A DNA stretch of 64,000 nucleotides from Saccostrea echinata (taxonomy: Eukaryota): contig NW_026889753.1 of assembly GCF_033153115.1 (NCBI RefSeq), positions 9,548,001-9,612,000 of the forward strand, written 5' to 3'. Position 1 is the first letter of the stretch; the number at the start of each line of letters is the position of its first letter. Under the pieces are notes generated by a model. The model was given only the letters and a program-made list of their open reading frames with translations. It did no database searches and was not told the origin of the DNA. Shown piece after piece: positions 18,284 to 40,018 of the stretch. The translations under genes and the position numbers were made by a program.

Positions 18284-21200
18284 ATGAGCACTGCTGTAGC
18301 ACCTCATCAGCCTAGTCAATCCATAGGATCTCCAAGACACCAAGACAGAAAAGCTCTTGTTTCATCTGATGGCAAAAATGGTATTTATTTGATAAATAAT
18401 ATAGAATATTCAGATATCAGTGTTGGATTTATTCTCTTTTTGGTGAAACAATAATTCATCACTCAATAAAATTTATATTATGTTATTCTTGCAGCTTTGC
18501 CAGAGCTTAGAAATAGTAATAATGCCTTAGACAAAACTAAGCCCCTCCCCACCTCACTACAGAGTGACTTTATTCCTGAGGATGTTCTGTTTGCCCTGAC
18601 ACAGCCTCCTCCTGTACGGGACCAACTCGGGCCTCCAACCCGGACCAGGAATCTTAATGTCTCTAATGTAAGTCAAAAAAGAGGTTCTGGAATAGTTTGA
18701 TCAAATATTATGATACACTAAAATATATACAGGTAATATGCAATCTGTCTTTTATTTCACTTTTTTAGTAGTAATTCACTTTTTTTAAAAAGTGTATAAT
18801 GTATATTTTTATTTAGAAACCAGAATAAATATGTGTGTCTTATTTCCAGGTGCCAGCTAGGGCTCCACCATCTAACCTTTGGAGCCATAAAAGAAGAGAA
18901 AGGTTTAAACACCTTACAGAAAACACACCTTGTATTTGTGGGGCTGGAAGGTAAAAATCCTAAACTAAAAAATATTCAGTTTAATTTTAAGATGATGTAT
19001 TTTTGTGACACATAGTAATACAGTGTAAAACTAATATTTGGGAATTTCCAGTGACATCTCCTTCCTGTACGATGTCCCTCTCCCAGAGAAGAAGTTGGAG
19101 AGACCAGATAAACTGGATAAAAGTTTTGCTAGAAAAGAAGCTCTGGACAAGCAGAGAAAGGTCAGGGGAATTCACTCTGTTAATTTATGATTAAATGCAC
19201 ATTACGGGATTTTTAAACAACCCTCTTTAAAAAAAATAAATAAACCATGCTCATGTAGAGATTTTTATTACGATAAAAAAAGTTTATTTGGTTTTGTTTT
19301 TTTTTTTTGGTAACAAGTGTCATACAATTTTATATCAAATTCATAAGTAAAATATATTTTACTCAGAGATCTACAGGAAAGGATGAAAAAGTAATAATGT
19401 TCTATTTTAATAAGAAAAGTCTAACATTGAATGGGAAAATAGCATTAACATGCTTTTGTCTTAATCATTTGTACTTGGCCAATGGCATCATACTGGTGCA
19501 GATATTTTACAACTTGCAATTACCTACAAGGAAGAAAGGTTAAACATATCTCCACAAGTGGCTTAATACTTTAATTGGCGTAAGATATTTTATGGAACTA
19601 ATTGTTTGATATCATCTCTTGAAATACATGTGTTTACTCTGTGCTTGTATATCATAATGGATTTTGTTTTAACTTGGTTACAGATTTATTATATGAAATT
19701 ATATATATATGAATATGTATAAAGTTGACTGGTGTTAAAAGCTTGTTTTTTTTTTTGTATGCTAACAATTTACATATTACTTTTACTTTAAAAAAAGCTT
19801 TCTTAGATTTCATTTAAGGAAGAAAGAGATTCCTTTCTTCCTTAGTTTTGTGCTCAGCAACAATGAAAATGACACTGAATGAATAAATAATATTTGAAAT
19901 TTTCACTATACTAATATGACCAGTCATTGAACTATATGTGAATACACAATATATTGATGAATTAACATTTAATGTTTTTCAGCCATTGGAGCTACCAGAC
20001 ACTTTAATTCCTGAGGAATATCATATCATCAAAAACAAAGGTGTCATGGGAATTGAGTTTCACGAGGAGTAAGCATATTGTAGTTTTTAGTATATAAAAT
20101 CTTTGTAGAGTATATTATAATCAATGTGCATGGTAATTCTGTAGGATTTCTATTTTTGTAATGATAAAGAATGTTTTTGTTTTTTTAAGACTGGTGCAAA
20201 ATTATTAATAAGGAGCAAATATTTTTCATATTCTTACTTAAGTTATATTTAATGGAGACATAATTTATAATAGAAGATTTGCAACTACATGTATTTAAAT
20301 CTTGCTCTATCCCACTGCTTTTAAGAATGTGAGGAACAATAAGCAAGAGCAGTTTAGTTCAAAGTAATCAAACATAAGAGCAGAAAACTTTTGAAACTCT
20401 TCGTATCAAATTATTAAACAAGCATTTTAAAGCACTACAAAGCTTGACTTTCAAAAGACAACAGATGACTCACACATACTTGACCATCTCAGTTATATTT
20501 TGTCAACTTCTGATTAATTGACCAGTTTACTTTTGTTAAATATTTTATGTTTTTTTATCATTACATGAATATAGTTATACTCCATACAAAAAAGAAACAA
20601 TTCAAATTGATAAGTTAACCAATAAAGTGTATAAGTTTGAATATAATACTATCCCAGATGTCCTTCACATAATGTGTGAATGGAACAGATGATAGTCTCC
20701 ATTATTATATACATCTCTGGTTAAAGAGTGAAGTTAAATCATAATGAGTCGGGCATTAACATTAGTGCATTTCAGCATTCAATCAAAAATGGCTAGTATA
20801 TCAGTAAATCTTCCATTATCAAATTCTTTTTTTTCAGCAAATACAGCAATCAAGTTGAGGACCATGAAAAACATCTGATTGTGTTTCCTTCTATGTAAGT
20901 AATTAAGTATCTTCATACTTACTGAGAGTGGTATCCTTTTTGTTACAAATCAGTGTTTGTTAAAATGATATACCCCTCAGTTAAGAATTTCACTTCAACA
21001 TTGTCATTAGAATTTAGAGAGAAAATGATTTCTTCATTGAAATGGAATTTAGAGAGAAAATGATTTCGTCATTCAAATGAAATCAATAATTGCTCATCGA
21101 TGCACAATTTGGTACAAGTTGAATATTAAAAATGTGAGGGAAAGTTTTACAGTGCTTCAACTTTCAACCATCATTAATTGATTTCTTGTTTTTAATTTCA

Positions 21201-24200
21201 TTGCAGGAAACCCTCAAGTCGCTTTGAAGTTGTTCAGTTGAAGAACACGATGGATCGTATGTTAGATAAAGCTGGAGTATATGACACAGATTCCGAGATT
21301 AGGGGACCAACTCAGGTGAGATCACAGACTACAATCTTGTATGTCGTATATACCTTTGTCTTCACAAGTTATGATAAAAGAATAAAATGGAGAATTATAT
21401 ACAATAATGTATACCATAAAGGTCATTTTTGGGAGTATTTACTACCTTTTTTATTTGTTGATATTATTTTATGAGAATTTATACAAATGCATATCAGTAG
21501 AACTAACTTGTTTATCTTAATTGGTACAAATAACTTTTTATTTTGAATATACTGCTGAACTTTCATTATGTCAATGTGAAAATTATTTAAATATTTCTTT
21601 GCAAGGGGACACAATAAAATGTAATGGAAACTAAATGGTGATCCAATAGGTATAAACTGGTACAAGTCAATGCATGCTTTATGTTACAAAAATATCACAT
21701 TGAACAATATATTAGATATTACAAATGAACCAAAGGAAACTCAAAAGCAGATTTCTTTGTTTTAAACACTGCACAGAAATTTTTGTTTTTATTTATGAAA
21801 ATATAGACATGCATTATTTTAGTGTGCTGATGTAAATATGTATGTTGTATTTATTGTCACTTCTAAAATAAATATATGTATTAGTTTCGTAATTCAAAAA
21901 TACATTTGTACATGTATTGATTTTTAATTCCAGATTTTGATTAGTTTTAAGGTTTTGTACTCTTTGAATATCCCATAATCTGCAGTCCGATGGCCATGAT
22001 AGTTAGAAGGCCATTAATCATTAATGCATAAAACTCACATAATTACATATACATAATACATTCTGAATTCTGTTTTAGATGCACAACTTACTTGAGTTAA
22101 TCAAGAAAGAACAGAATATTTACAACACAGTCTTTCATGAGGTTATCAGACAGGTGGGTTTGGTGTCTTCAGTAAGTCTAAAAAGGTTTTCACAAAATAC
22201 TGCTAAATCACTGATAAAGGAATCTATGTCTAAGAATTAGTCTCATGTTTGTCATAAAAATCTTGAACCGAATCATGTACATGTTTTGTAAAGTTATGTG
22301 TAATTTATTGAATGCTGGAGTTATCTAAAAGTGTGGCATAAAATATATTTTACTGCTGGTATAATAACTGAAGAATTCCCTGACATTTTATTTTTGGAAA
22401 ATGAATATATTATTTCGATGCATTAACCATACCATTTTTGTCAAATATTCCGTGAACAAGAAAAATTAAATTGTGTGTTATTTGTAGGTGAGCATAGAAT
22501 GTGTGGACAGAGGAGAACTTTTAGCCAATCTTCGCCAGAAGTACAGCGACCTACTGAACAAAGTCCCACAGCAAATCAAGAGGTGAGGCATCAACTGTTC
22601 TTATATTAATCATTCTGTAAAAAATGTTTTAGTCATTCCAAGTTTCTAATGCCTATATTTTGTCCATTGCTCAGTTTACATGAGGAGGTTATGGCACAGA
22701 GAGCTCTGGATAGAAGACTGACTGAAGAGCTGATGAGATTTAAAGGCACCATTGGTATACTGACCAGGTATGGCTCATCCAGCAGAAAGAGAATAATGTG
22801 TCAAAATGTAAGGAAAAGAGAGTTATCTCCCTTACATTGTGATCTTTACAGCAGTCATTGATTATATGTTAGGAGTGAATATTTTGACAACTCCAATAGC
22901 GTAAGCAGCACTGCATAAGAGAACCCTAGGTTTCTTAACATTTTTAAACTGTCCACCATTTCAGTGAGCTGTCTGCAGTCAAGGAACACGACAAGAAAGT
23001 CACCAAAGAAGCACAACAAGCCCAGGAGGATGTGAGTAGGAGTTGTTTCCCTTTAAGGTGGCGAATTTTATAGCTCTAGAGTTACAGAACCAGTACACAT
23101 TCACAAATCTCACTGTTGATTTTTTCATCAACAGCTGAAGACAGCCCTGTCTGAGGCCCAGAAAAATGCTAGTCTTCTGGCAGAGTACCATGATTTATAT
23201 GAGTTACAAAGGAAGAGACTGGAAACTTCAGTCCATTTACTGACAGAAGAGCGGGAACTCTGGAGTAATGCTGCCTATAGTCTTGCTCTCAAGGTATGGA
23301 AATATATCTGAATGGGAGCTTTTATCATGTATGACATTTTTAAATGTTAATATCTGCGTAAGTGGTTCTATATACTTGAACTTTTTATAGTGTTAAGTTT
23401 AAAGTTTATATCAAACAATGCATCAACACTTTCAGATTACTTTTCTTGACTTCATTCAATATGGACCATTTTCTGTTGTTACACCCCAAAACTTTAGAAA
23501 CAAATAAATATTATTCTGGATTATGAGAGATATCAAGTTTACAATGAGATTCTACACTTTATGATGCATTAGGTGACAGAGGAAGCTAATTTGACCACAG
23601 CTAAGAAGCTTCATGTTAGTGAGAAATCATGGGCCAAACTGGCCACCCACTTCACCATTCTGCTAAGTGACAAGGACACGGAGCTCCTGACTAACCTCCA
23701 GACACACGTGGAGAGGTGGCGCGACCTGGTAGAGGAATTTAACATCATTCTGAAAACCCGAGAAGAAGAAATGAAGGTCAACATCAGCTCTCTGAAGGGT
23801 AGCATTCAAAAATGGATGCTTGAGATTCGAAAGATTTGCTTGTAAGTTTATTTCTCTGGGGTAATCTTTATTTAGTTTTCAGTCTATTATTCAGAAAAAA
23901 GGATATATAATTTTTTTGTATTGTTGTTAATTTCACTGATAGCACTCTACAAGAGTAGTAGCACACATTTTGGACACTTCTTGTGGTTTTTTGGTTCAGT
24001 TTTTTTACTTTTTCATATTTCACGTTTGCACAGAGTACCATTTTAAGTACCAATCTAACTCTTTCACAGCAATATAGGGATCGTTAAGTATTTATGTTTA
24101 ATTAGCGCATAAATTTCAGTGACGTGGATGAAAATGCTAGTGTTAGTACAATGAGGTAATATGTATGTGTATAATTAATTATTATATATATGTTAATTTA

Positions 24201-27200
24201 ACAACTGTTACAGGTTTGTTCTTTATGTAAGGGGCTTTGAGGGAAAATTGTTTAATTAACTAAAAAGTATTTGATTGTATTTTGGGGGCAAAACTAATCA
24301 TGTTTTTGAAATACAAGTTACCATATGTTACAAATGTATTACATGTATTTAATTGCTTTTTGTAATAACTGGTTCAAAGTTGATTCCAGAAGTGCATGTT
24401 TTATTAACAAAGAGCATTTTTGAATTTAACAAAATTTAAAGTGAAAAGAAAAAGTTTAAAATTGATGTATTTGATTTGATTTTAATTATTATAGAAAAAT
24501 AAGGCAGAGGTAAGCAATGTTTGAGGGGATACTGTGGTCAGTTTGTAACAATCCCCGCCAGTAGGTTGTCAATTTTCACATCAAAATATCATCCATTTCA
24601 TCATCATAGTTCCCAGTTTGCTTCTCTTGAAATAATGCTAGATCTGAGTCATCAGTTTCATAATTCACAATTACTAGTAGAGAGAATACAATTATAGAAA
24701 TATTGCTATGGTAATGGGATTTCTGTACTTGCATTTCAGAAAAGTAATATGTGAAATAAAAGAATTATAGAGCATTTGATAATAGGCGTATTGCATTCCT
24801 GGTTAACATTGATACATCATCGCATATTACATGCATTGATGCATGTATAAAAGCCTGTGCATGGAATGTCTTTATAATGAAGTTTTTACACTTTAATTAA
24901 GGCTCCTTCGTTATAGAAGTTATGAAGAGTAAGTCTTAATAGCATGACTTGATGATTGTTGTGAAAGTTTTGTTGGTTTTTTTCTGTATTGTGCAAAAAA
25001 AAAAATTTGATGTTAAATTGCAATTTGATTGAAATTCAGACTGTTAAGTATAAAGCCCCTTTAGGTCTGTATTAAAATTGATGAAGAATAAAGACAAATC
25101 TTAATGTTTATATTCACCAAAAACATGACTTAGTTGTACTGTATATAAACAATAATAACAAAGGACAAGCAAATAAATAAAACTGATAAATTATCCTTTT
25201 TTAATTAACTTTCTCTGCATCAATCATACTTTTCAATATATTCATAAAATTAATATCTTAATTTTACCTGAATTTCTCTTCTTAGATTTATTATATACAA
25301 TCCAGTTCATAGTTTTATTTTTCAATACAATGAATTTACATTCTCTTATATAGACAATCCTCTCTAACATTTTTATGAAATACTTTCAGCTCATATTAGC
25401 TTGTCTGTCGAGTTTTTCTGATCAAAGCTAGTTTGTCATCCTTCTGTAACAACTTTTTTGTGTGAAAAATTGCTGAAATTTTCTTCTACAGAACTAAACT
25501 TGGCACAAAGCATCTTTGGGAAAGGATTTTTAACTTTTCAACAAAATAAAGGATCAGGTCTCTGCAGAAGTGGAGACAATTTGTAAAGTAATGTAGGGCA
25601 ATTTGATAATCTTTTTAACAAGAACCACTTGTCCAAAAAAGACGAAATTCATCTAAAAAGAAAAGCTTCCTTTGTTACCAATTAAAATATTGTTTGTAAA
25701 TTAAAAATGCTGAATATTGAAATAAATGTAGGCCATCATTAGGGTATTTCAATCGTATCATTTTTTCAGGAAGCAAAAGATTTTTCGGGTGAGCCTTGTG
25801 GCTCATGGGCCTCTTTAATTCCCATTCTTTGTTTTGAAAACAAAATATTTTACATGTAACCATTTTTTTTTTAAATAAACAAACAGACTTGTTGAAAAAT
25901 ACTTCCAGCATCATTTCCATTGGACATTTAATTAGAACTGGCTTTGCCTAATGGAAGATGTTGCGTAATGTTTTATATACAGTTCATTTCTTTATTTGAA
26001 ATGGCTATCTGCCTCTATTTTTTTAAAATTCATTTTAATACATGTGAATGTAATGTAGCAATCCAACAATGTGAGACTGCAGTATCTTGCATGGGGAATG
26101 AATTAATGAATGGGTTGCACTTGTTTTACTAAATTGCATGCAAACTAGAACTACAATGTAGCTGAAAATTAGTTAATATATGAGTTTATGGCAGCATCAC
26201 AAATCAGAAATGAGAAAAATATAAATTTCAAACATTTTTGTTTGAACATGTTTATAAAATAGGACTTTAAAAAAAAACTGCTCTTTTTTCAGCCAGTGTT
26301 TACGAGTCGGTTTTACAAATTATACCCTAGGTAACATATTGCTATCTAACACTGCATTGTCTACATTTCAGTACAAAAGAAGGTCATTTCCAAAAGCCTC
26401 CAGATGAATCAACTCTGAGGTTGTTTCTAGAAGAAATGAGAAATTGGGAAGAGGTACTTTAAAACAAAAATTAAAATTACTAATCATCATTTCATTTAAA
26501 ATTCAAAACCTAAGTATAATATACATTATTTTTTGTGGAGGGGGTGGAGATATTAACATAAACATGTATTTGACGTGTTACCGTAGACTTTTACAACTTA
26601 CAGTAAGAGGGGATGTCAAATTGCTTTATTCTTGGCCATTTTTTTATAAAGCACATATTTTTGTTATAGGTACTTGGTAGAGAAGCAGAGAAATTCGGAG
26701 GTGATACCTTACTGAACGGTCAAGAGAAGTTAACGGTCATCAGACAACAGATGGATGGATGGACAGACAATGCCCTCAAGGTCTTCAGTCGCCACCGAAA
26801 GGAGGGGGCCAAGAACCATCCAGATCAGGACGGAATGATGACATTGAATGAGGTAACTATCTGTGTGTTTCAATAAATTTAGCAAAAACTAAGTATGAAT
26901 TTCAAACTAGTTGTTTTTTCTAAGATTAAGTAAAGAGAATGTACAGTGGAGCCTCATTAATCTGGACACCAATAATACAGACACTTTACCTTCTGAATTA
27001 AAATTTTAGGGAACAGAATTGACAATTATATCTACCAGTTATAAAAGGAACATTTCATTTATGGAGACAGTTCATTAATTTCCAAGATTTTCTATGGAAC
27101 ACAAACACCTGGATTAACAAGGCTCAACTGTACCACTTCAAATATGTTATCATAGAATGAGTTTTACTAAAAGTACAAATAAGACTTTTAAATTTTTTTG

Positions 27201-30200
27201 AAGAGGAATATATATTTTATTAAAGAAAATGTATACATACATATTTTCTCTTCTAAACAGGAAGTTGAGGAATTGCTGAGACAATTTAATAACAGAATTA
27301 CGGGAGAAAATGGTGAGTAGTGCTTTACTCACATCTGAAGAGTTACAAAATTTATATGACTAATCACTACCCAAGATCTGTGCCATAGATTACAAAGAAC
27401 CTGAGTGGATTATAAAATGGAGAAGGTTTCTGTATACCTGTAGGTAAATGTTACCTGGTTACCTCTAGTATTCTGAGGATTCTTATTTTGATATTTTTTT
27501 AATTTGGTTTATTGCTTTTACCTTTAAATTATTTAAAATTTTCGGAGTTTTTTTAATTATCATTGGGGCCCTGCATCAAACTATGAGTGTTGACTGTCGT
27601 GATCACTGGATACATCTGTCAATATGTTTATCTGACTGATTATTTGAAAAAAATGATAAATTGTAATATTTATATCCTACAGACTTCATGAATACTTTAT
27701 AGGTGGAGAATCATGAGAGAAAGACATTAATTTAAAGGTTTTGGGGCCACTTGCTCATAGTTCAATGTCAAAGCTTGAGTGTAACAATATGGTCATTGTA
27801 ATGCAATAATTTAGATATTTTATTAAAGGTCAAGATCAAAAGGTCAAAATTATTGATATAATGATACTATGGGCCCTGTATGACTTTGGCAGATTTCTAG
27901 TTGGTTTTTTTTTTTGAATATTGTATTTATTAATTTTCCTAATTTTTATGCATGCATTTTTTTTTTTTTAAAGATGGCAGTAAAATAGATCATTTTACAT
28001 TTTAGCTTAGGAAAGATGACTTGTAAAAATTTATGGACTTAATTATATCTAGTTACATTGTTCAATCATATGATAAAAACAAATGTTTTGTTTAAGAAGT
28101 GTTGAACGTTTTGGTGGGTTTTACTGGCTTTTAACAAAATTCTTTCATTGTTGAAGGGGTTGCACCACATGCCATTCATTTAATGCATGGTCTGGAGACA
28201 TGGGATTTGAAGATAGCAGCCTCGCTGAATGGAACCCAGCCCATCAATGACAATGAATGGGTCAGTCTACTGAATCTGATGGAGGAATGGATGGGGGGTA
28301 TCGATGATGCAGTGCAGTACGTAGGATCCACCCAAAAGGAGGAAGACAGGATTGAGTCAAAACCACACACTAGGTAGCCATGGTAACCAGTGGTTACCAT
28401 AGTCACAAATTACCAGCACACCATCTGCTATTTGAATAACCTGAGGAACACTCTATAACTATATGTATAACCTGCACTCTGGGTGAATAACTAACTCTTC
28501 ACAGCTCAGAAAAAACTTTGCACCATTCACATATATGCATTTTGTATGAAATTATATCACATTATATACTAAGCAATTCATTTTCAAGCTGTTAAGTAAA
28601 TTTTTTCCGTTAACTTCACCATAACTGTAGATAAGTGTTAATTGCATTATTTAAATTTTTTGCAATAAACAATTTGGAATTAATCACAACAGATATTTAT
28701 ACATCAATGAATGCTTTTTAGAGAGAAGTTTTATTGTGCTAACTAACATGCGCTTTTTCGTGTTAGATTTGTGGTTTTCCTTGAACCAAGGAGGTAGGCT
28801 ATATGTCTCCAGATGCGTTTTCTCCCATGTTTTATTAAATGTTACCCTATATTAACATGTATAGTTAGTAAGGTTAATATCCCAGTTCATATTGTCTTAA
28901 TGTTGATCAATTTCTATAAAATAAAATATCAATTTTTTAATCAAATTTACATATACATCTACATTATTGATGATTATTGACATTTAACACTGAGATCAGG
29001 GACAATAACCAGAAATTTTCCCAGTATTAACCGAGTACTCGTACCTTTGGGGAATTGTCTTACAAAGAGCTCAACACAATGAGTCAAAGCATGAATGAAC
29101 TTGGCTCAGATTATACCATGCGCTGCTTTGGCACTAATATTTCACTAATATTCACTACTGTGTGGCTTTGATTTCACTCTGTTTTCTGACTTACATTTGT
29201 AATCCAAACTACTGAAGCATTTCTATGTAATTTTCCTCTCTTTACAGCAAGCATTAGAAATAGTATATCATGACAAATTATTTTGAAAACTCAATAATTT
29301 AATGCCCTTATTCAAAAGTTTTAATGTAATCTTAACAGTGAAATACTGAATTTGAAAGTAAATAACACTAACTGGATAATGAATTGAGTTTCCTCTTTAT
29401 TGACTGGTTTGGATTTTTAGGATTGATGTCATGGATACGGTTAGGAAGGTGCAGAAATGGGCCACCACAGCCAGTAATGCTATAGACAGTGAAGATGGAA
29501 GACTTGTCGAACAGGTTACTGTCATTCCAATTTTATTGAAACCACAATATTTACTTTATTAAATCTGCAAATGTTTAGTGGTCTCATTAATCTTTTTTGC
29601 TTTTCTTTTTCCAAAAAACGGGAAAAAAAAATTATATAGCTTTCATATGACTCATAATTGTTTTAAAAAATTTCCAGTTTGTAAAAAGTAAATCCAATTT
29701 CAGCCCACATTTGATTCGAAGTTTTCTAAAAAGAAAATAAATAAATAAATAAAAAAAAACAAAGTGTAAGTCTTATTGGTTGTTTAATATTTGTGAATGA
29801 CAATATTTCGTTTTGGGATTTTGTGTAGGTTTCGACACTTCACTCTCAGATGGTACAGTGGATGGTCCAGATGCTGTTACGACTCGCCCCAGACAAGGAG
29901 GGGAACTCTAAGGAGGCAGCAGACATGGTCCTCCTCAACAGCCTCACCCTGGGACAACTCTACTCCAACGTCAAAATGCTGTTTGAACAACTAGAGCAGT
30001 TCTCAACCTATGTAGCTCAGTAAGTTCTTAAACTGTGTCTTCTGATGCTTGAAGTGCAGATAGTTACAGCTTGTTTGTAAATTAACTTCACAGTTCCCAG
30101 TTACTTGCTGTTATATCATGAATTCTCTGTCTGTGGACTATATAACCATGTATGAGCTTTTGTTACTAGTTTTCACCTCTTGTCATCACCTCTACTCTTA

Positions 30201-32910
30201 CAATTACATATCCCTTTTTACCTCTATCTTTACTATGACTACTATAATATTAATCTATCTTCCTATTTTAAACTAACATGATGTTTCTCTTTCTTTCTCT
30301 CCATCTGTCTTAATCAGAAATTCCAGTGAAATCTTATTTGGCATCAGTAATCTTATATCTATAGAGGATGAATATCAGAACTCAAGGTAAAAAGTACACA
30401 AAATCAGATTTCCCTTCTTTCTATATTTGCTGATTTCTCCTTCTTCTATGAATTAATTGCTTACACAATTTGAAAATTTAAACTACAGCAAGAAAAAAGA
30501 GACTGTATAATTTATCTATATTCTAACTTCCATTACTGCTTATACATGTACCTATAAATTGTTAGTTGTGCATAAAGCATAAATTGAAATATTGCTTGCA
30601 TGAATTTTGTGGAATCTGTTGAACCTGTATGTATACAATGTATTTCTCTGGTTAGCTAGAATACAACTAATTTTTGTTGTTGTTGATTACAGATGTTGTA
30701 GTGGTGTGGTGATGGACAACACCCAGGCCAGGCGTGACAATATGGAGGACAATGCTGAGCATGAATTGAAGGATTTACAGAGACTCAGGGTAGGTTTTGT
30801 ATCAAACTCGGGGTATGTCCTCCACTGTATCAGTTTCAGACTCAGGATAGATCCTGTATCAGACTAGGGGGTAGGTCCTCCACTGTATTTACAGAGACTC
30901 AGGGTAAGTTCTGTATCAGACTCAGACTCAGGGTAGGTCCTGTATCAGACTCACTCAGGGTAGGTCCTGTATCAGACTCAGACTCAGGGTAGGTCCTGTA
31001 TCAGACTCACTCAGGGTAGGTCCTGTATCAGACTCAGACTCAGGGTAGGTCCTGTATTAGACTCAAGAGTAGGTCCCCAATTGTATCAGTCTCAGACTCA
31101 GGGTAGGTCCTGTATCAGACTCAGGGTATGTCCTCTATGAAACTCTGGGTAGGTCCTTTATCAGACTCTGGGTAGGACCAATCTCAGACTCAGGGTAGGT
31201 CCTGTATCAGACACTAGGTAGGTCCTGTATCAGACTCAGAGTAGGTCCTGCATCAGACTCAGGATAGGTCCTGTATCAGACTCAGAGTAGGTCCTGTATC
31301 AGACTCAGAATAGGTCCTGTATCAGACTCAGGGTAGGTCCTGTATCAGACTCAGAGTAGTTCTGTATCAGACTCAGGGTAGGTCCTGTATCAGACTCAGG
31401 GTAGTTCTGTATCAGACTCTGGGTAGGTCCTGTATCAGACTCTGGATAGGTCCTGTATCAGACTCAGGGTAGGTCCTGTATCAGACTCAGGGTAGTTCTG
31501 TATCAGACTCTGGGTAGGTCCTGTATCAGACTCAGGGTAGGTCCTGTATCAGACTCAAGGTAGGTCCTCAACTGTATATACATAGACTTAGGGTAGGTCC
31601 TCATTTGTGTTTACAGAGACTCAGGATAGGTTTACAGATGTCGGGTAGGTCATAAACTGTGTTTACAGACAGGATAGATCCTCCATTGTGTTAACAGAGA
31701 CTCAGGGTTGGTCCTCAACTGTGTTTACAGAGACTCAGGGTAATCCTCAACTGTGTTTACAGAGACTCTTTGAATTTACAGTCTCAGACCCATTAGGACA
31801 TAATCTGTATTTATAGACACTCAGGATAAGACCTAAATTATATTTACAGACTTTTATTGTATATCATAATCTGAAGAATCCACAGATTTCAGTTTGATTC
31901 TAGAATTTTTATGTGATATTCTTATCTGGAACAACATTACTCTATACATTTGTCCATTTAAAAAAATAAATCTTACAGAGGGAGCATGTCAGTGATCAAG
32001 ATTTTGTTGAACTTCATCAAAATAAGTTTTAAAAAAATTCGGTAAAAGTATATCACATAAGAATTCTAAAATATGTAACATGATGACAATGCTTTGGAGA
32101 CAAACATTTTTAATACATATGTAAGCATTTGATTTTGACTTTGACCATTGTGTAATGACCTATGACCTTTACAGATGGAGTGCATGGATTGGATCCACAC
32201 AGCTAAGTTGTTAACCAGCCACCTGTTGGAGGAGCCTGTTGAGTCCTTGTTTCCCTCTGCTACCTCCGGGGAGGAGCCCTCTAAGAAGTCTGCCCCAGAG
32301 AAAGCCGCTGTGGCTTTCCATGACAAAGAGAAACTAAAGCCCTCAGTGCCAGAGGCAGAGGCTGTAAGAACTTTAAGAATGAAAACTTAATTTTGTGTGG
32401 ATTTTTTTTCCTGAATCTTCAATGATTGGTTGATAAGAATTAGACTATGACCATATATAACCACTTTCTGAACATTTATCAAAGAACCACCCTTAGTATT
32501 ATCAACTTATTTAAATAAGTTATGTATTAAACAGTATTTTTGTAACATAAATACTAGATAGTACTGTTTTAGGATATATTCATTTGATGTTTTTATTTCA
32601 GAAAACAGAGGCTCCATCCACACAGCCAGCTGAAGCTGATAAAAAGGAAAATCCAAAGGATGGGGTTCCACCAGAAAGAGAAACAGGGGAGGGGGAGGAA
32701 CAGAAAAAACCAGCCCCAGTGCCACCCAAGGTTAGTACCAAAGTCAAGGTCAAATCATCAGTGTTTTGGATGTATCGTATCTTTCTTCATTTTAATTTTG
32801 AAAATGGTTTTATCACAGCAAGAAAAAGAGTCCAGTAAAGAGAAACTGGAAGTGATTGGCTATGATGAGAATACACACACAAAAACTCTAAAGACATCAG
32901 ACTCTAAGGT

Positions 32911-32963
<53 letters not shown>

Positions 32964-33815
32964 ATTTCCCATTGTAATTACTTACTTTTGAAAATAAAAT
33001 AATATATGCTCCTTTCTGACAGCCATCAGCTCCTGCCACATTTATACCTGATGCTCCCAACACACAGAAATCTTACGAGGCTTTGGAGGCTGTAGAGAGT
33101 CTACAAGGACAGCTCATGTAAGTACCCAGCAGCTTAATTAAAATTCTGTATGAAGGACAGGGCCACATGGAATATAAATGGATACAAGTACTGCCCATAC
33201 TTCATGGCAGGTAATTGAATTATGTAAAAAATGAAGCATTTTCATGGTGTTCAATTTGAAAATGTGTGAAAATTAATCTGGATACCCATATTAAATTTTA
33301 TTTTTAAAAGGATTTTAAGAAAATATAAATTACCATTTTCTCTGAGACTGTAGGCAATCTGGATATAATGAACATAATTAGTATTTGACCAATCTAGAGT
33401 TAAAAAGCATCATTACAGGTGTTCATTCTTGACAAACCTGTAGGCTCCTTTTATTTACTAGATCTTTATCTTAAAGTGATTTCACAGTAATGTTTTCTCT
33501 CCTTGACTCTTTAGGGCCACTGAGCAGAGAGCTCAAGCCGCAGAAGACCGAGCTGCTGAGGCCGAGTCAGATCTGGCCGACGCCAACGAGCGAATCAGGG
33601 AACTAGAAAAACGATTGGCCAAGTTAGAAAAGCAGGAGGAGGAATCTACAGTAGGTGACAAGACCCCCACCAAGGCATCAGCCACACCCACAACCCCTAG
33701 GGAAGAACCTGCTGCAAAGGAGAAATCTCCAGAAAAGAAGGAAGAAAAGAAGAGACCTGAGTCACAGGCATCTAAAGCTAGCTCCAAATCTAGTAAATCC
33801 AAGAAAGGGAAATAA
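18284..33815 (+). CDS. AXDND1: Axonemal dynein light chain domain-containing protein 1, about 1069 aa (25 core coding exons)
   Basis: Exons 18284-18380, 18495-18667, 18850-18950, 19052-19160, 19983-20068, 20838-20894, 21207-21315, 22079-22153, 22488-22582, 22675-22767, 22965-23031, 23135-23293, 23573-23841, 26372-26453, 26670-26852, 27261-27312, 28157-28373, 29421-29514, 29829-30019, 30693-30789, 32175-32363, 32602-32730, 32819-32908, 33023-33117, 33515-33815 (3210 nt, open). Motifs [52 protein letters not shown] and [13 protein letters not shown] match AXDND1 as I recall it. Confidence 0.9.
25388..25832 (+). mobile_element. Decayed Helentron/HINE-like element
   Basis: AGCTCA...TTTTCTGATCAAA start and GTGGCTCATGGGCCTCTT end, collinear with 12131-13328. 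Confidence 0.5.
26944..27130. mobile_element. Tc1/mariner-type MITE, TA TSD
   Basis: TA|CAGTGGAGCCTCATTAATCTGG ... CCTGGATTAACAAGGCTCAACTG|TA. Confidence 0.7.
30775..31770. repeat. Intronic minisatellite, core unit about 23 bp (CAGACTCAGGGTAGGTCCTGTAT), roughly 30 copies
   Basis: Tandem copies directly visible. Longer variants (TGTTTACAGAGACTCAGGG...) at both edges. Confidence 0.95.
32914..32960. repeat. (CT)n microsatellite
   Basis: Perfect CT run immediately after an AXDND1 donor site. Confidence 0.95.
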
Positions 33816-36520: not shown

Positions 36521-37735
36521 TGGCAATTAATTTCCCAAAGTGAAACCAATGACTTTCCAATTTTAAAGAAAAAAGCTTGACGCTACCATCACATCTATCA
36601 TTTTAAACAGTTGTGGCTACTCTTTTCTCCAATATGAAGTCTCTGGAAGTCAATCTCAGGGTATTAAAACATCTAGTTAGTTAGAACTTCAGACTTTAAA
36701 TTGCTGCGAGAGGTATAAATGTAAAATTGTCACTGAGGTTGTTGACACCCAGAGCTCCCATAAAACCACAAAACAAGCGTTTTTAAACCAAGTAGATCAT
36801 TTATACAAGGTCTATTTGTACTACAGGCGTGTCAAATGTAGTCCATGTTAAGACAATGGTGTCTCACGTACAAGCCTTATACACATTAATACTGGTGTCC
36901 TGGATTTATTACTTACTGGTACTTTCTGTTGCCGCTTTTCTACCCGATGAACCCACATGTAATTGCAGAAGACTGTGATATAATAATATTAATAACCGGA
37001 AACTCGTACAATCGTGATTTTAATAACGTGTCCTTTTACATGTATTACTAAAATCATTAAGACATGCATGTGCATAATTATCAAATGTAGACGTATTAAA
37101 GATATGATGCATTTGTTAAAATTCAGGATACACTTAAACACAGGTCAGTTTACCAGTTAGATTTAATAAATGTATTTAAGTTTCATCAAGTTTCATATGG
37201 TGCGTACAGTCAACTCTTCAAATGTTGGCCTGTATGTAGGCCTATTCCCACGATCACGACCTGTTACACTTGTTAAAAGAATTTATTAATAGTCTAGAAA
37301 ACCTCAAAAGTAGAATTAACGTTTAGTCTGCTGGTGGGAGGCGATGTTAACATTGAATGTATTAGGTTTAAAGAGCCTGTCCTTTAAATGTTTTTAATAC
37401 TTAATCTTGGCTACCTACTGACATACCATTCAAACAGTAAAACTTTTCAAGTTTAACGCTCCGTGGTCAATACATAATACTTGTATTGAAAACCCTTAAA
37501 AGAAAAACAAAAAAAGGCCACTACACTATAACCTAACATCTTCACCTAGCTGGTCCTAGGAACAGCTGGAATATCATCTCGCTGATGGTGGTGCTAGGAG
37601 TGTTACAACATTCTGAAAAACGTAATAATCCGAAAACGAAAACTGAAAATTTTTTATTCTAAGACTTTTTTGATGGAAGTTCAGCCTAAAATTATTTTTA
37701 CTTCAGGTTAGGGGGAAAAGGAATATGTGAACATC

Positions 37736-38788
37736 ATGGATGAAGCACACAATCTTACTCTGCAATGGAATCAGGACTATACGGAGAAACTTCTGCCCAC
37801 AGTTGTATTTCAAGGTGTTGTCTGCTTTATTGGTCTGGTGGGAAACATATTAGTGCTTCTTGTGTACGCTTTTCGAATGAAAGGGAACCGTGATGATCGC
37901 TACTTCATACCCATCTTGGCTGTGTTCGACCTCATCGCAAGTGCTGTGGCATCGGTATTTTACGTTCTCGAGTCCATCTACTTTGTGGACTTTCCATCGT
38001 CCGGCCTTTGTAAAGGTATGTTGTACACCATGACAGCTACCTCGGGTTTGTCGGCTCTGCTACTTATCGGAATAGCTGTCCAGAGGTATTTGAAAATCTG
38101 CAAGCCTCACGGAAAACAAATGGACGAGAACAAGAGGAAGCTGTGCTTGGCCTGTATTGTAGTATTCTCCATCTTGTATTCATGTCCAGTTTTGTTGTTC
38201 TCTGGAAATAAAGAAGTGGAAGGGAACTTTAACGGCCATAACGTTACTGGATTAACCTGTTTCACAGGAGCAGGGAACTACCCTACTTATGAAGCAGTTT
38301 ACTATTATATCATCTTTCTTCTCATGGTGGCCAATATCCTGACTGTGGGCTTCCTCTACATCCCAATCGGAGTCGTCATTTATCGCCACAACAAACTCAG
38401 AGAGGCTCGACGTAGGAAAAGTATGGACATCACATCAACTCAATTCGATTCAATCTCTGACAATAAGCCAAGCCAGTGCAGCACCAAAGAAATTTCATCG
38501 AAACCGAGGACTTACAAAGAAAGCAAAATTAATTTCAATGTGATGTTCTTTACCATTATTGTGTTTTATCTCATTTCCTACACACCAACATGTATTTTTC
38601 TGATCATCAGCAAACTTTCTCCAGAAATGTGGTATAATATTTCTAACGCCGAAATGATTATCTTCTTCACGTTGCAGAGATTTTACGTCATCAATCACGT
38701 GGTTAACCCAATCATTTATGGTTATTTTGACATGAAATTCCGCTCTGACATTATCAATTTGTTTAAATGTTTACCCAGTAATTACTGA
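37736..38788 (+). CDS. Class A (rhodopsin-like) GPCR, peptide-receptor-like orphan, 350 aa, single coding exon
   Basis: Seven hydrophobic segments. TM1 GN, TM2 LAVFD, TM3 Cys and QRY, ECL2 Cys, TM6 FYLISYTP, TM7 NHVVNPIIYG, helix 8 FR. N-terminal NLT sequon. First ATG at 37736. Acceptor TTTTTACTTCAG| at 37706 implies an upstream UTR exon. Confidence 0.92.
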   Translation: MDEAHNLTLQWNQDYTEKLLPTVVFQGVVCFIGLVGNILVLLVYAFRMKGNRDDRYFIPILAVFDLIASAVASVFYVLESIYFVDFPSSGLCKGMLYTMTATSGLSALLLIGIAVQRYLKICKPHGKQMDENKRKLCLACIVVFSILYSCPVLLFSGNKEVEGNFNGHNVTGLTCFTGAGNYPTYEAVYYYIIFLLMVANILTVGFLYIPIGVVIYRHNKLREARRRKSMDITSTQFDSISDNKPSQCSTKEISSKPRTYKESKINFNVMFFTIIVFYLISYTPTCIFLIISKLSPEMWYNISNAEMIIFFTLQRFYVINHVVNPIIYGYFDMKFRSDIINLFKCLPSNY

Positions 38789-39659: not shown

Positions 39660-40018
39660 GTGAAAACCCAAGATTTAAAGTTGGAAAAATGGAAAAGTCA
39701 ATTCTTAAGTTGAAAAAGCCAAGATTTAAAGATGAAACTACCACAATTAAAGTTGGAAAAACCGAGATTAACGTTAGAAAGCCAAGATTAAAGTTAAAAA
39801 AAAACAAGATTAAAGTTGGGAAAAAACAATATTATATTGGAATTACCAGCTTTAAACTTTGAAAAACCAAGATTAAAGTTGGTAAAACTGAGATAAAAGT
39901 TGGAATAGCCAACTTTATAGTTGGAAAAGTCAACTTAAAGCTTAAAAAGCCAACGAAAAGTTGGAGAAAAAAAACAAGATTTAATTTGAAAAGCCAAGAT
40001 TAAGTTGGAATTTCCAAT
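39660..40018. repeat. Degenerate minisatellite, unit about 21-22 bp (AAAACCAAGATTAAAGTTGG)
   Basis: Repeated CCAAGATT(T)AAAGTTGGAAAA variants. Confidence 0.8.

Follow-up and report, generated by a model that had tools for sequence, protein, structure and literature searches.

Optional microexons at one junction of the oyster gene AXDND1, a putative hotspot of recurrent splicing

Within the gene AXDND1 of the oyster Saccostrea echinata, a phase-2 intron raises the question of whether the short, frame-preserving segments that it contains are real microexons and, if so, how they are controlled and what they may do to the protein. This intron lies in a stretch of 64,000 nucleotides (nt) of the forward strand (NCBI RefSeq assembly GCF_033153115.1, contig NW_026889753.1, positions 9,548,001 to 9,612,000), which is referred to here as the window, and to which all coordinates refer. 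An earlier note, made from the letters alone, had proposed a tissue-regulated cassette of five candidate microexons at this place, likely missed by annotation and presumably governed by RBFOX and SRRM (eMIC) factors. Three of these segments, of 36, 15, and 27 nt, are almost certainly real optional microexons, and their insertion point is predicted to be a surface loop of the protein.

The host gene is AXDND1. The RefSeq protein XP_061169865.1 (isoform X1) fits the window with zero mismatches, in 29 GT-AG exons from 18284 to 33812, and the S. echinata isoforms X2, X3, and X4 also map without a mismatch. The domain PF10211 (residues 194-365, some 130 residues ahead of the microexon junction) is found in a protein of approximately 1000-1100 residues, the nearest relative of which is an annotated AXDND1, and the exon at 23573-23841 is 99% identical to a Saccostrea echinata AXDND1-like protein. 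Spliced mapping gives phase 2 for the host intron, 23842-26371, and 76 nt for the shortest AXDND1 intron mapped. In the mouse, AXDND1 is enriched in germ cells, and its role as a dynein-cargo adaptor is put forward as a proposal only (PMC11245616). The frame of the gene is as follows.

18284 to 33815 (+): AXDND1 coding region, 29 exons in the RefSeq X1 form, from the spliced mapping of XP_061169865.1 (P0040), with PF10211
23573 to 23841 (+): constitutive upstream exon, ending in phase 2 and encoding the end of a long predicted helix
26372 to 26453 (+): constitutive downstream exon

Three short exons lie between these two constitutive exons, and are present in public protein models.

24120 to 24155 (+): 36-nt optional microexon, acidic and Ser/Thr-rich, in RefSeq S. 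echinata X1 and X2 and in oyster homologues
24495 to 24509 (+): 15-nt optional microexon, basic, KIRQ, in RefSeq S. echinata X3, with the strongest splice sites of the intron
24902 to 24928 (+): 27-nt optional microexon, LLRYRSYE, in RefSeq S. echinata X1 and in S. cucullata

The isoforms of S. echinata differ precisely in these exons, with X1 carrying the 36- and 27-nt exons, X2 (XP_061169866.1) the 36-nt exon, X3 (XP_061169867.1) the 15-nt exon, and X4 (XP_061169869.1) none of them. Orthologous peptides of all three are found in the RefSeq proteins of Ostrea edulis, Magallana gigas/angulata, and Crassostrea virginica, while the RefSeq isoforms of S. cucullata contain the 36- and 27-nt exons only. 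At least one of the three occurs in 54 of the 70 oyster proteins that span the junction, a redundant set that mixes old and new annotations with isoforms differing elsewhere, and a sample in which 15 members were taken from each large cluster (clusters of 49, 105, and 38). Seven of the eight possible combinations are represented in this set: the 36- and 27-nt exons together (n = 21), none (16), the 15-nt exon (12), all three (7), the 36-nt exon (6), the 15- and 27-nt exons (6), and the 27-nt exon (2), with the 36- and 15-nt exons alone in no protein. This bears out the combinatorial use that the earlier note had proposed. Its suggestion that annotation had probably missed the exons was mistaken for these three, given that X1-X3 already contain them; they are present in public databases, as automated gene models.

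Nine of the 11 residues of the 36-nt peptide are identical in each of Ostrea, Magallana, and C. virginica, and all four residues of the 15-nt peptide are identical in each of these lineages, a degree of conservation similar to that of the flanking exons across the oysters (40-43 of 45 and 34-37 of 40 residues). The 27-nt exon is constant in length, but only 3-5 of its eight residues are identical in the other oysters. The note had left the start of this last exon open, and it is the 27-nt form that is found in proteins; the inner acceptor at 24917, which would yield a 12-nt exon, scores 12.2, yet no protein uses that form. All three exons fall within the limit of 51 nt for alternative microexons, have canonical AG/GT borders, and occur in both included and skipped forms. 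The near certainty that they are real derives from the matching peptides of homologous proteins, rather than from the sequence pattern.

That pattern was nevertheless recorded correctly. The six segments singled out in the note, including both forms of the third exon, lie where it had placed them, each with AG before and GT after; no stop arises in any of the 32 combinations of five segments, and the peptide obtained by joining four of them is reproduced. Open, frame-preserving AG..GT segments of 3-51 nt number 89 in the intron, and average 69 over 300 dinucleotide-shuffled versions of it. When they are scored with a splice-site matrix derived from AXDND1's own sites (26 donors and 26 acceptors), only the 15-nt segment beats chance (score 17.3, matched in 3% of 300 shuffles), and each of the remaining segments has 0.9-9.7 equally scoring chance segments per shuffle. 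Within the intron, the 15-nt segment ranks first, followed by the 12-nt form at 24917 (second), the 36-nt (third) and 27-nt segments (sixth), the 12-nt segment at 26059 (seventh), and the 18-nt segment at 24070 (14th). The pattern alone is thus weak evidence for microexons, and these numbers, together with the lack of any inclusion in four public runs, are what an explanation of all the segments as chance or annotation artefacts could draw on. This explanation is extremely improbable, in view of the orthologous peptides in the independent annotations of several species and in intron-free Logan contigs, which refute it for the 36-, 15-, and 27-nt exons and leave it as the best reading for the 18-nt segment only.

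Two further segments of the proposed cassette are found in none of the 70 oyster proteins that span the junction.

24070 to 24087 (+): 18-nt candidate, rejected for its weak donor and its absence from oyster proteins
26059 to 26070 (+): 12-nt candidate microexon, NPT, considered for its likeness to clam inserts and its motif context

The 18-nt segment is probably due to chance, so that the cassette of five stands for the 36-, 15-, and 27-nt members and loses this one. Its donor, GTATTT, scores 0.5, under all 26 training donors (the lowest of which scores 3.3), approximately ten chance segments per shuffle score equally well, and none of the 70 oyster proteins contains it. Only 32 nt separate it from the 36-nt exon, and the shortest intron mapped in the gene is more than twice as long. 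In a read-through Logan protein of a related oyster (P0149), AG..GT borders are impossible at the exact offsets of this segment and possible 4 nt away, and one allele carries a 3-nt insertion and a substitution within it that keep the frame.

The 12-nt segment at 26059 is likewise absent from the 70 oyster proteins, and has 3.6 chance equals per shuffle. Inserts of four residues are found at the same junction in other bivalves, however, including NPV in Mactra, TPV in a clam-like Logan protein (P0352), and FDP in Sinanodonta, and the six-residue insert of Mya ends in SPI. Similarity to the clam inserts is reached by four of the 361 open 12-nt AG..GT segments on both strands of the window, the candidate included, and in 2.7% of 5000 shuffles of the intron, a share that falls to 0.3% when an equal splice score is also demanded; these values are optimistic because the likeness had been spotted before it was tested. 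The AG-free zone ahead of the segment extends over 74 nt, longer than at 25 of the 26 other AXDND1 acceptors, and the hexamer TGCATG follows at +18 and +65. Read aligners readily lose very short exons. The chance that this segment is a real microexon may be put at somewhat less than even.

The place at which the exons enter the protein was approached through an AlphaFold model of the skip form (57 sequences, mean predicted local distance difference test [pLDDT] of 66.7). In this model, a helix spans residues 415-496, followed by a small hairpin at 497-503 (strands at 497 and 503, pLDDT of about 90) and by the next helix from residue 509. The split codon corresponds to residue 497, so that inserts would enter at the start of the hairpin, and a model that includes the 36-nt exon shows the insert as a loop of low confidence. 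The length of the span 488-522 differs in approximately 73% of 55 homologues, versus 0-2% for spans starting at 245-460. A search of PDB sequences returned one p28-like chain, and no solved structure that informs the loop. The insert encoded by the 36-nt exon brings three acidic residues along with several Ser/Thr residues; that of the 15-nt exon brings two basic residues and, when included alone, creates an R-x-x-T motif in each of the four oyster genera. A conserved junction site of the CK2 type was not pursued as evidence, because its serine is a consequence of exons that end in AG.

The mechanism that these features suggest is that the microexons are likely skipped by default, and that, once included, they would add short, serine-rich peptides of acidic or basic character to a predicted surface loop between a helix of about 80 residues and the next helix, well outside PF10211. 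The insert would shift the charge and the phosphorylation potential of this exposed loop and may, thereby, alter the binding of partners, which would likely tune the partner binding of the dynein-associated AXDND1 in some ciliated or germ cells. Regulation of the microexons between cell types or states is probable, and a functional tuning of the loop is somewhat more likely than not. The R-x-x-T motif of the lone 15-nt exon could be used by a basophilic kinase, a specific route that is rather unlikely.

The same junction also varies in other animals. Among bivalves, isoform pairs differ there by 5, 7-8, and 9 residues in Mytilus, by 4 in Pecten maximus, by 14 in Argopecten, and by 6 in Mya; among deuterostomes, they differ by 24 residues in the acorn worm Ptychodera and by 18 in the starfish Acanthaster. 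Single proteins of Mactra and Sinanodonta, as well as P0352, carry four-residue inserts. The short basic inserts of the mussel and Pecten (AIRK, ARK) resemble the oyster KIRQ, one mussel and one scallop insert have GD.LF in common, and the insert of Ptychodera is conserved in two further hemichordates, Glandiceps and Saccoglossus. The deuterostome inserts would measure 54 and 72 nt if they are single exons, which are not microexons, and show no likeness to those of the bivalves. This comparison was made at the protein level, and the only DNA from beyond the oysters is a metagenome contig (L001, 1005-2163) with AXDND1 exons of a non-oyster animal at 55% identity. It has an 807-nt intron at the same position and in the same phase, with one TGCATG and eight crude microexon candidates, none of which has support. 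No other oyster genomic DNA was found in scans of metagenomes, genomes, and viruses, and the metagenome match was limited to this contig.

At the protein level, therefore, unrelated alternative exons occupy an orthologous place in the oysters and six other genera. The junction intron appears to behave like a recurrent splicing hotspot, in which different lineages recruited unrelated exons, presumably because the loop tolerates changes in length. The similar basic inserts of four or five residues in mussels and Pecten make it likely that the 15-nt exon is the oldest of the three switches, and the main one.

Taken as a whole, the explanation by which three optional microexons, and possibly the 12-nt one as a fourth, retune a single predicted surface loop of AXDND1 is fairly likely. 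A number of observations weigh against it. The 27-nt exon diverges rapidly, and one allele alters a residue in it (24924). The RefSeq X-isoforms are automated models, and may rest on few reads. Confidence in the whole structural model is modest (predicted template-modelling score of 0.49), and a fold search gave generic helical matches only, with template-modelling scores below 0.15. The motif R-x-x-S/T is found in only 11 of 27 insert forms (and none of 11 skip forms), and is absent from the 27-nt forms of Ostrea and Magallana. No junction insert was seen among the isoforms of Dreissena (7), Pomacea (2), and Branchiostoma (9, of fixed length), nor in the gar (12) or the stingray (9), and among the bat proteins (8) the only difference is one residue; the individual proteins examined from a gastropod, an annelid, and a nemertean also have none.

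The transcript data weigh in the same direction. Four public runs, from at most two samples of one study and on record neither as RNA nor with a tissue label, cover the region 21800-28600, and in all four only the direct joint of 23841 to 26372 is seen, at a depth of 39-251 and with no letters between, nor was the inclusion of any microexon found in the S. echinata reads or among the contig pieces listed for these runs. Contigs drop rare forms, and missing inclusion in them is not proof of absence. A step in depth at 26401 in three runs (for example, 101 versus 250) was considered as a trace of hidden isoforms and rejected, because the upstream contig has no branch at 23841. The Logan-only proteins of related oysters that span the junction (n = 11) include the 15-nt exon in seven cases and skip it in four, and none of them has the 36- or 27-nt exon spliced in. 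Those of about 1070 residues lie on contigs of about 3.5 kb, and would therefore represent spliced transcripts; the split of seven versus four indicates that the assembled form, 15-nt or skip, can vary by run. The direct joint that the earlier note had proposed to check is thus the only one in the four runs (two samples), and inclusion forms exist in RefSeq and in the Logan proteins. This suggests two classes of exon, a strong 15-nt switch, which is possibly the major form, versus a rarer inclusion of the 36- and 27-nt exons.

These same results could mean that the exons are real and near-neutral, included at a low level in a tolerant loop, where frameshifts are purged and the frame is thus kept, with no tuning of the protein. 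Such a reading accommodates the four skip-only runs, the restriction of the 36- and 27-nt exons to automated models, the unrelated inserts of the different lineages, and the free variation in loop length. It is unlikely, given the 15-nt peptide that is invariant, and the 36-nt peptide that retains 9 of 11 residues, across four oyster genera, the assembly of the 15-nt form in 7 of the 11 Logan-only proteins, and the conserved hemichordate insert.

The proposed retuning of the loop by optional microexons raises the question of which factors control their inclusion. The note had pointed to five copies of TGCATG, the RBFOX element, and all five are present.

24393 to 24398 (+): TGCATG, at 238 nt past the 36-nt exon and 102 nt ahead of the 15-nt exon
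24840 to 24863 (+): two TGCATG (24840 and 24858), 62 and 44 nt before the 27-nt exon
26088 to 26140 (+): two TGCATG (26088 and 26135), 18 and 65 nt after the 12-nt candidate

Between 0.95 and 1.03 copies are expected in the intron (P 0.003-0.01; Poisson 0.003-0.004; 1% of 300 shuffles), a nominal P for a motif that the note had chosen beforehand and that ranks seventh among the hexamers of the intron. The reverse complement is not enriched (2 versus 1.0 expected), and the host intron contains five of the nine copies in 12.2 kb of AXDND1 introns. An equal-length minus-strand stretch elsewhere in the window has seven TGCATG, in the region of a tandem repeat of a 146-nt unit. This repeat (15370-15953, four units) is the source of several of the minus-strand copies. 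In human alternative micro-exons, TGCATG is enriched downstream, and downstream binding favors inclusion (PMC4317164). In the oyster intron, the 300 nt that follow the 15-nt exon contain no copy, nor do those that follow the 27-nt exon, and both exons have their nearest copies upstream; the copy that follows the 36-nt exon lies at +238. An involvement of RBFOX in the splicing of the AXDND1 microexons is possible, and is viewed here with some doubt.

The eMIC code consists of UGC near the acceptor, a long AG-free zone, and CUAAY (Torres-Mendez et al. 2022, PMC8797185). No TGC lies within 20 nt of any of the six candidate acceptors, and CTAAY is absent within 60 nt of the 36-, 15-, 27-, and 12-nt acceptors, being found only ahead of the 18-nt segment. 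The AG-free zones of the 36-, 15-, and 27-nt exons measure 12, 38, and 17 nt, respectively, against a median of 33 over the other 26 acceptors of the gene. The eMIC sequence code is thus not present at these three exons, and the eMIC/SRRM regulation proposed for them finds no support in the sequence.

A neural or muscle cassette of four or five microexons under RBFOX and eMIC control, along the lines of the note, is distinctly unlikely. The excess of TGCATG speaks for it, as do the two copies behind the 12-nt candidate, at the position linked to inclusion in mammals (PMC4317164), and the 74-nt AG-free zone ahead of that candidate. It is opposed by the absence of TGC and CTAAY from the relevant acceptors, the AG-free zones of the three established exons (12, 38, and 17 nt), the upstream position of the motifs nearest to the 15- and 27-nt exons, the failure of the 18-nt segment, and the enrichment of mouse AXDND1 in germ cells (PMC11245616).

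Elsewhere in the gene, two additional short exons may exist.

19367 to 19390 (+): further 24-nt microexon, phase 0, RSTGKDEK, matched by exons of Magallana, C. virginica, and Ostrea
28767 to 28793 (+): further 27-nt microexon, phase 2, FVVFLEPR, matched by the M. gigas exon SVTFLDDR

The counterparts of the first are RPAGKDDK in Magallana (also in one Logan protein) and KPVDKDEK in C. virginica. The second ranks first among the 19 candidates of its intron (score 14.1); upstream of it, TGC is found at positions -18 and -30, and CTAAC at positions -28 and -24. Cassettes of 8-9 residues occupy its place in scallops, Dreissena, and Mya. It would be the best eMIC-like candidate in AXDND1, and its sequence fits the eMIC code better than do the 36-, 15-, and 27-nt exons. 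Neither is present in any of the 11 Saccostrea RefSeq isoforms listed, and both appear to be microexons that the Saccostrea annotation misses.

Other options preserve the frame as well, and include a 51-nt cassette at 27389-27439 (+), a 57-nt alternative donor extension at 28317-28373 (+), and a 69-nt cassette at 30318-30386 (+), of which the 51- and 69-nt cassettes form low-confidence loops in the model. The four runs skip the 51-nt exon and pass from 28317 straight to the exon at 29421, without the donor extension, and represent the shortest AXDND1 form. Tandem acceptors are found at the start of exon 27 (32819, +), where one S. cucullata isoform is two residues shorter. In the AXDND1 of Branchiostoma (P0150, P0313, P0315), a 24-residue cassette lies elsewhere, near residue 742, and the junction used in oysters has none. 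An array of 23-33-nt units at 30773-31768, in an AXDND1 intron, repeats the end of the preceding exon together with the donor-like GGGTAGGT. Carbonic-anhydrase-like proteins fall within an oyster AXDND1 cluster (proteins P0079-P0081), apparently linked through an old 1326-residue model of M. gigas, which is likely a fused annotation of neighboring genes. The window also contains an array of 21-nt units at 39707-40007, an assembly gap of 143 N at 7225-7367, and, at 37712-38788 (+), an intronless open reading frame of 358 residues that encodes a G-protein-coupled receptor of the rhodopsin family (PF00001, E 4e-26).

A more far-reaching proposal would make the junction an ancient bilaterian hotspot, with a stack of four microexons in bivalves, an RBFOX-activated 12-nt exon shared from oysters to clams, and a ciliary-type code independent of eMIC. 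In this full form it is improbable. If it were true, the stack, together with at least five other AXDND1 cassettes, would build versions of the adaptor for gill cilia, sperm flagella, and sensory or neural cilia. The literature searched, which lay mostly outside subscription journals, contained no study on microexons in molluscs or on the splicing of AXDND1 in bivalves. The locus is compact, with three conserved microexons and one candidate in a gene that mammalian sperm tails need, and it could show whether lophotrochozoans run a non-neural microexon program, and whether differences between types of cilia arise from how their shared adaptors are spliced. The idea of recurrent splicing hotspots would, moreover, gain an example of a second kind.

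Compared with the S. echinata RefSeq isoforms, the exons described here correspond exactly in the 36- plus 27-nt, 36-nt, 15-nt, and skip forms, all of which map onto the window, and differ in the 12-nt candidate and the segments at 19367-19390 and 28767-28793, which those isoforms lack. With the RBFOX micro-exons of mammals (Li et al. 2015, PMC4317164), the oyster exons share a length of up to 51 nt, the preservation of the frame, and TGCATG in the flanking intron, whereas the mammalian motifs are conserved and downstream, a geometry that is approached in the oyster only at the 12-nt candidate. With the neural microexons that depend on eMIC and SRRM3-4 (PMC8797185), they share short exons and weak 3' splice sites, but the three oyster exons lack UGC, the long AG-free zone, and CUAAY. 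The closest parallel to the junction itself is the IgIII region of Fgfr, a bilaterian hotspot of recurrent alternative splicing (Burguera et al. 2017, PMC5703972), where unrelated alternative exons have likewise arisen repeatedly at one orthologous place, including an exon found throughout the Ambulacraria. AXDND1 differs from this system in being a dynein-associated protein of cilia and flagella, and in the nature of its bivalve exons, which are microexons stacked three or four deep.

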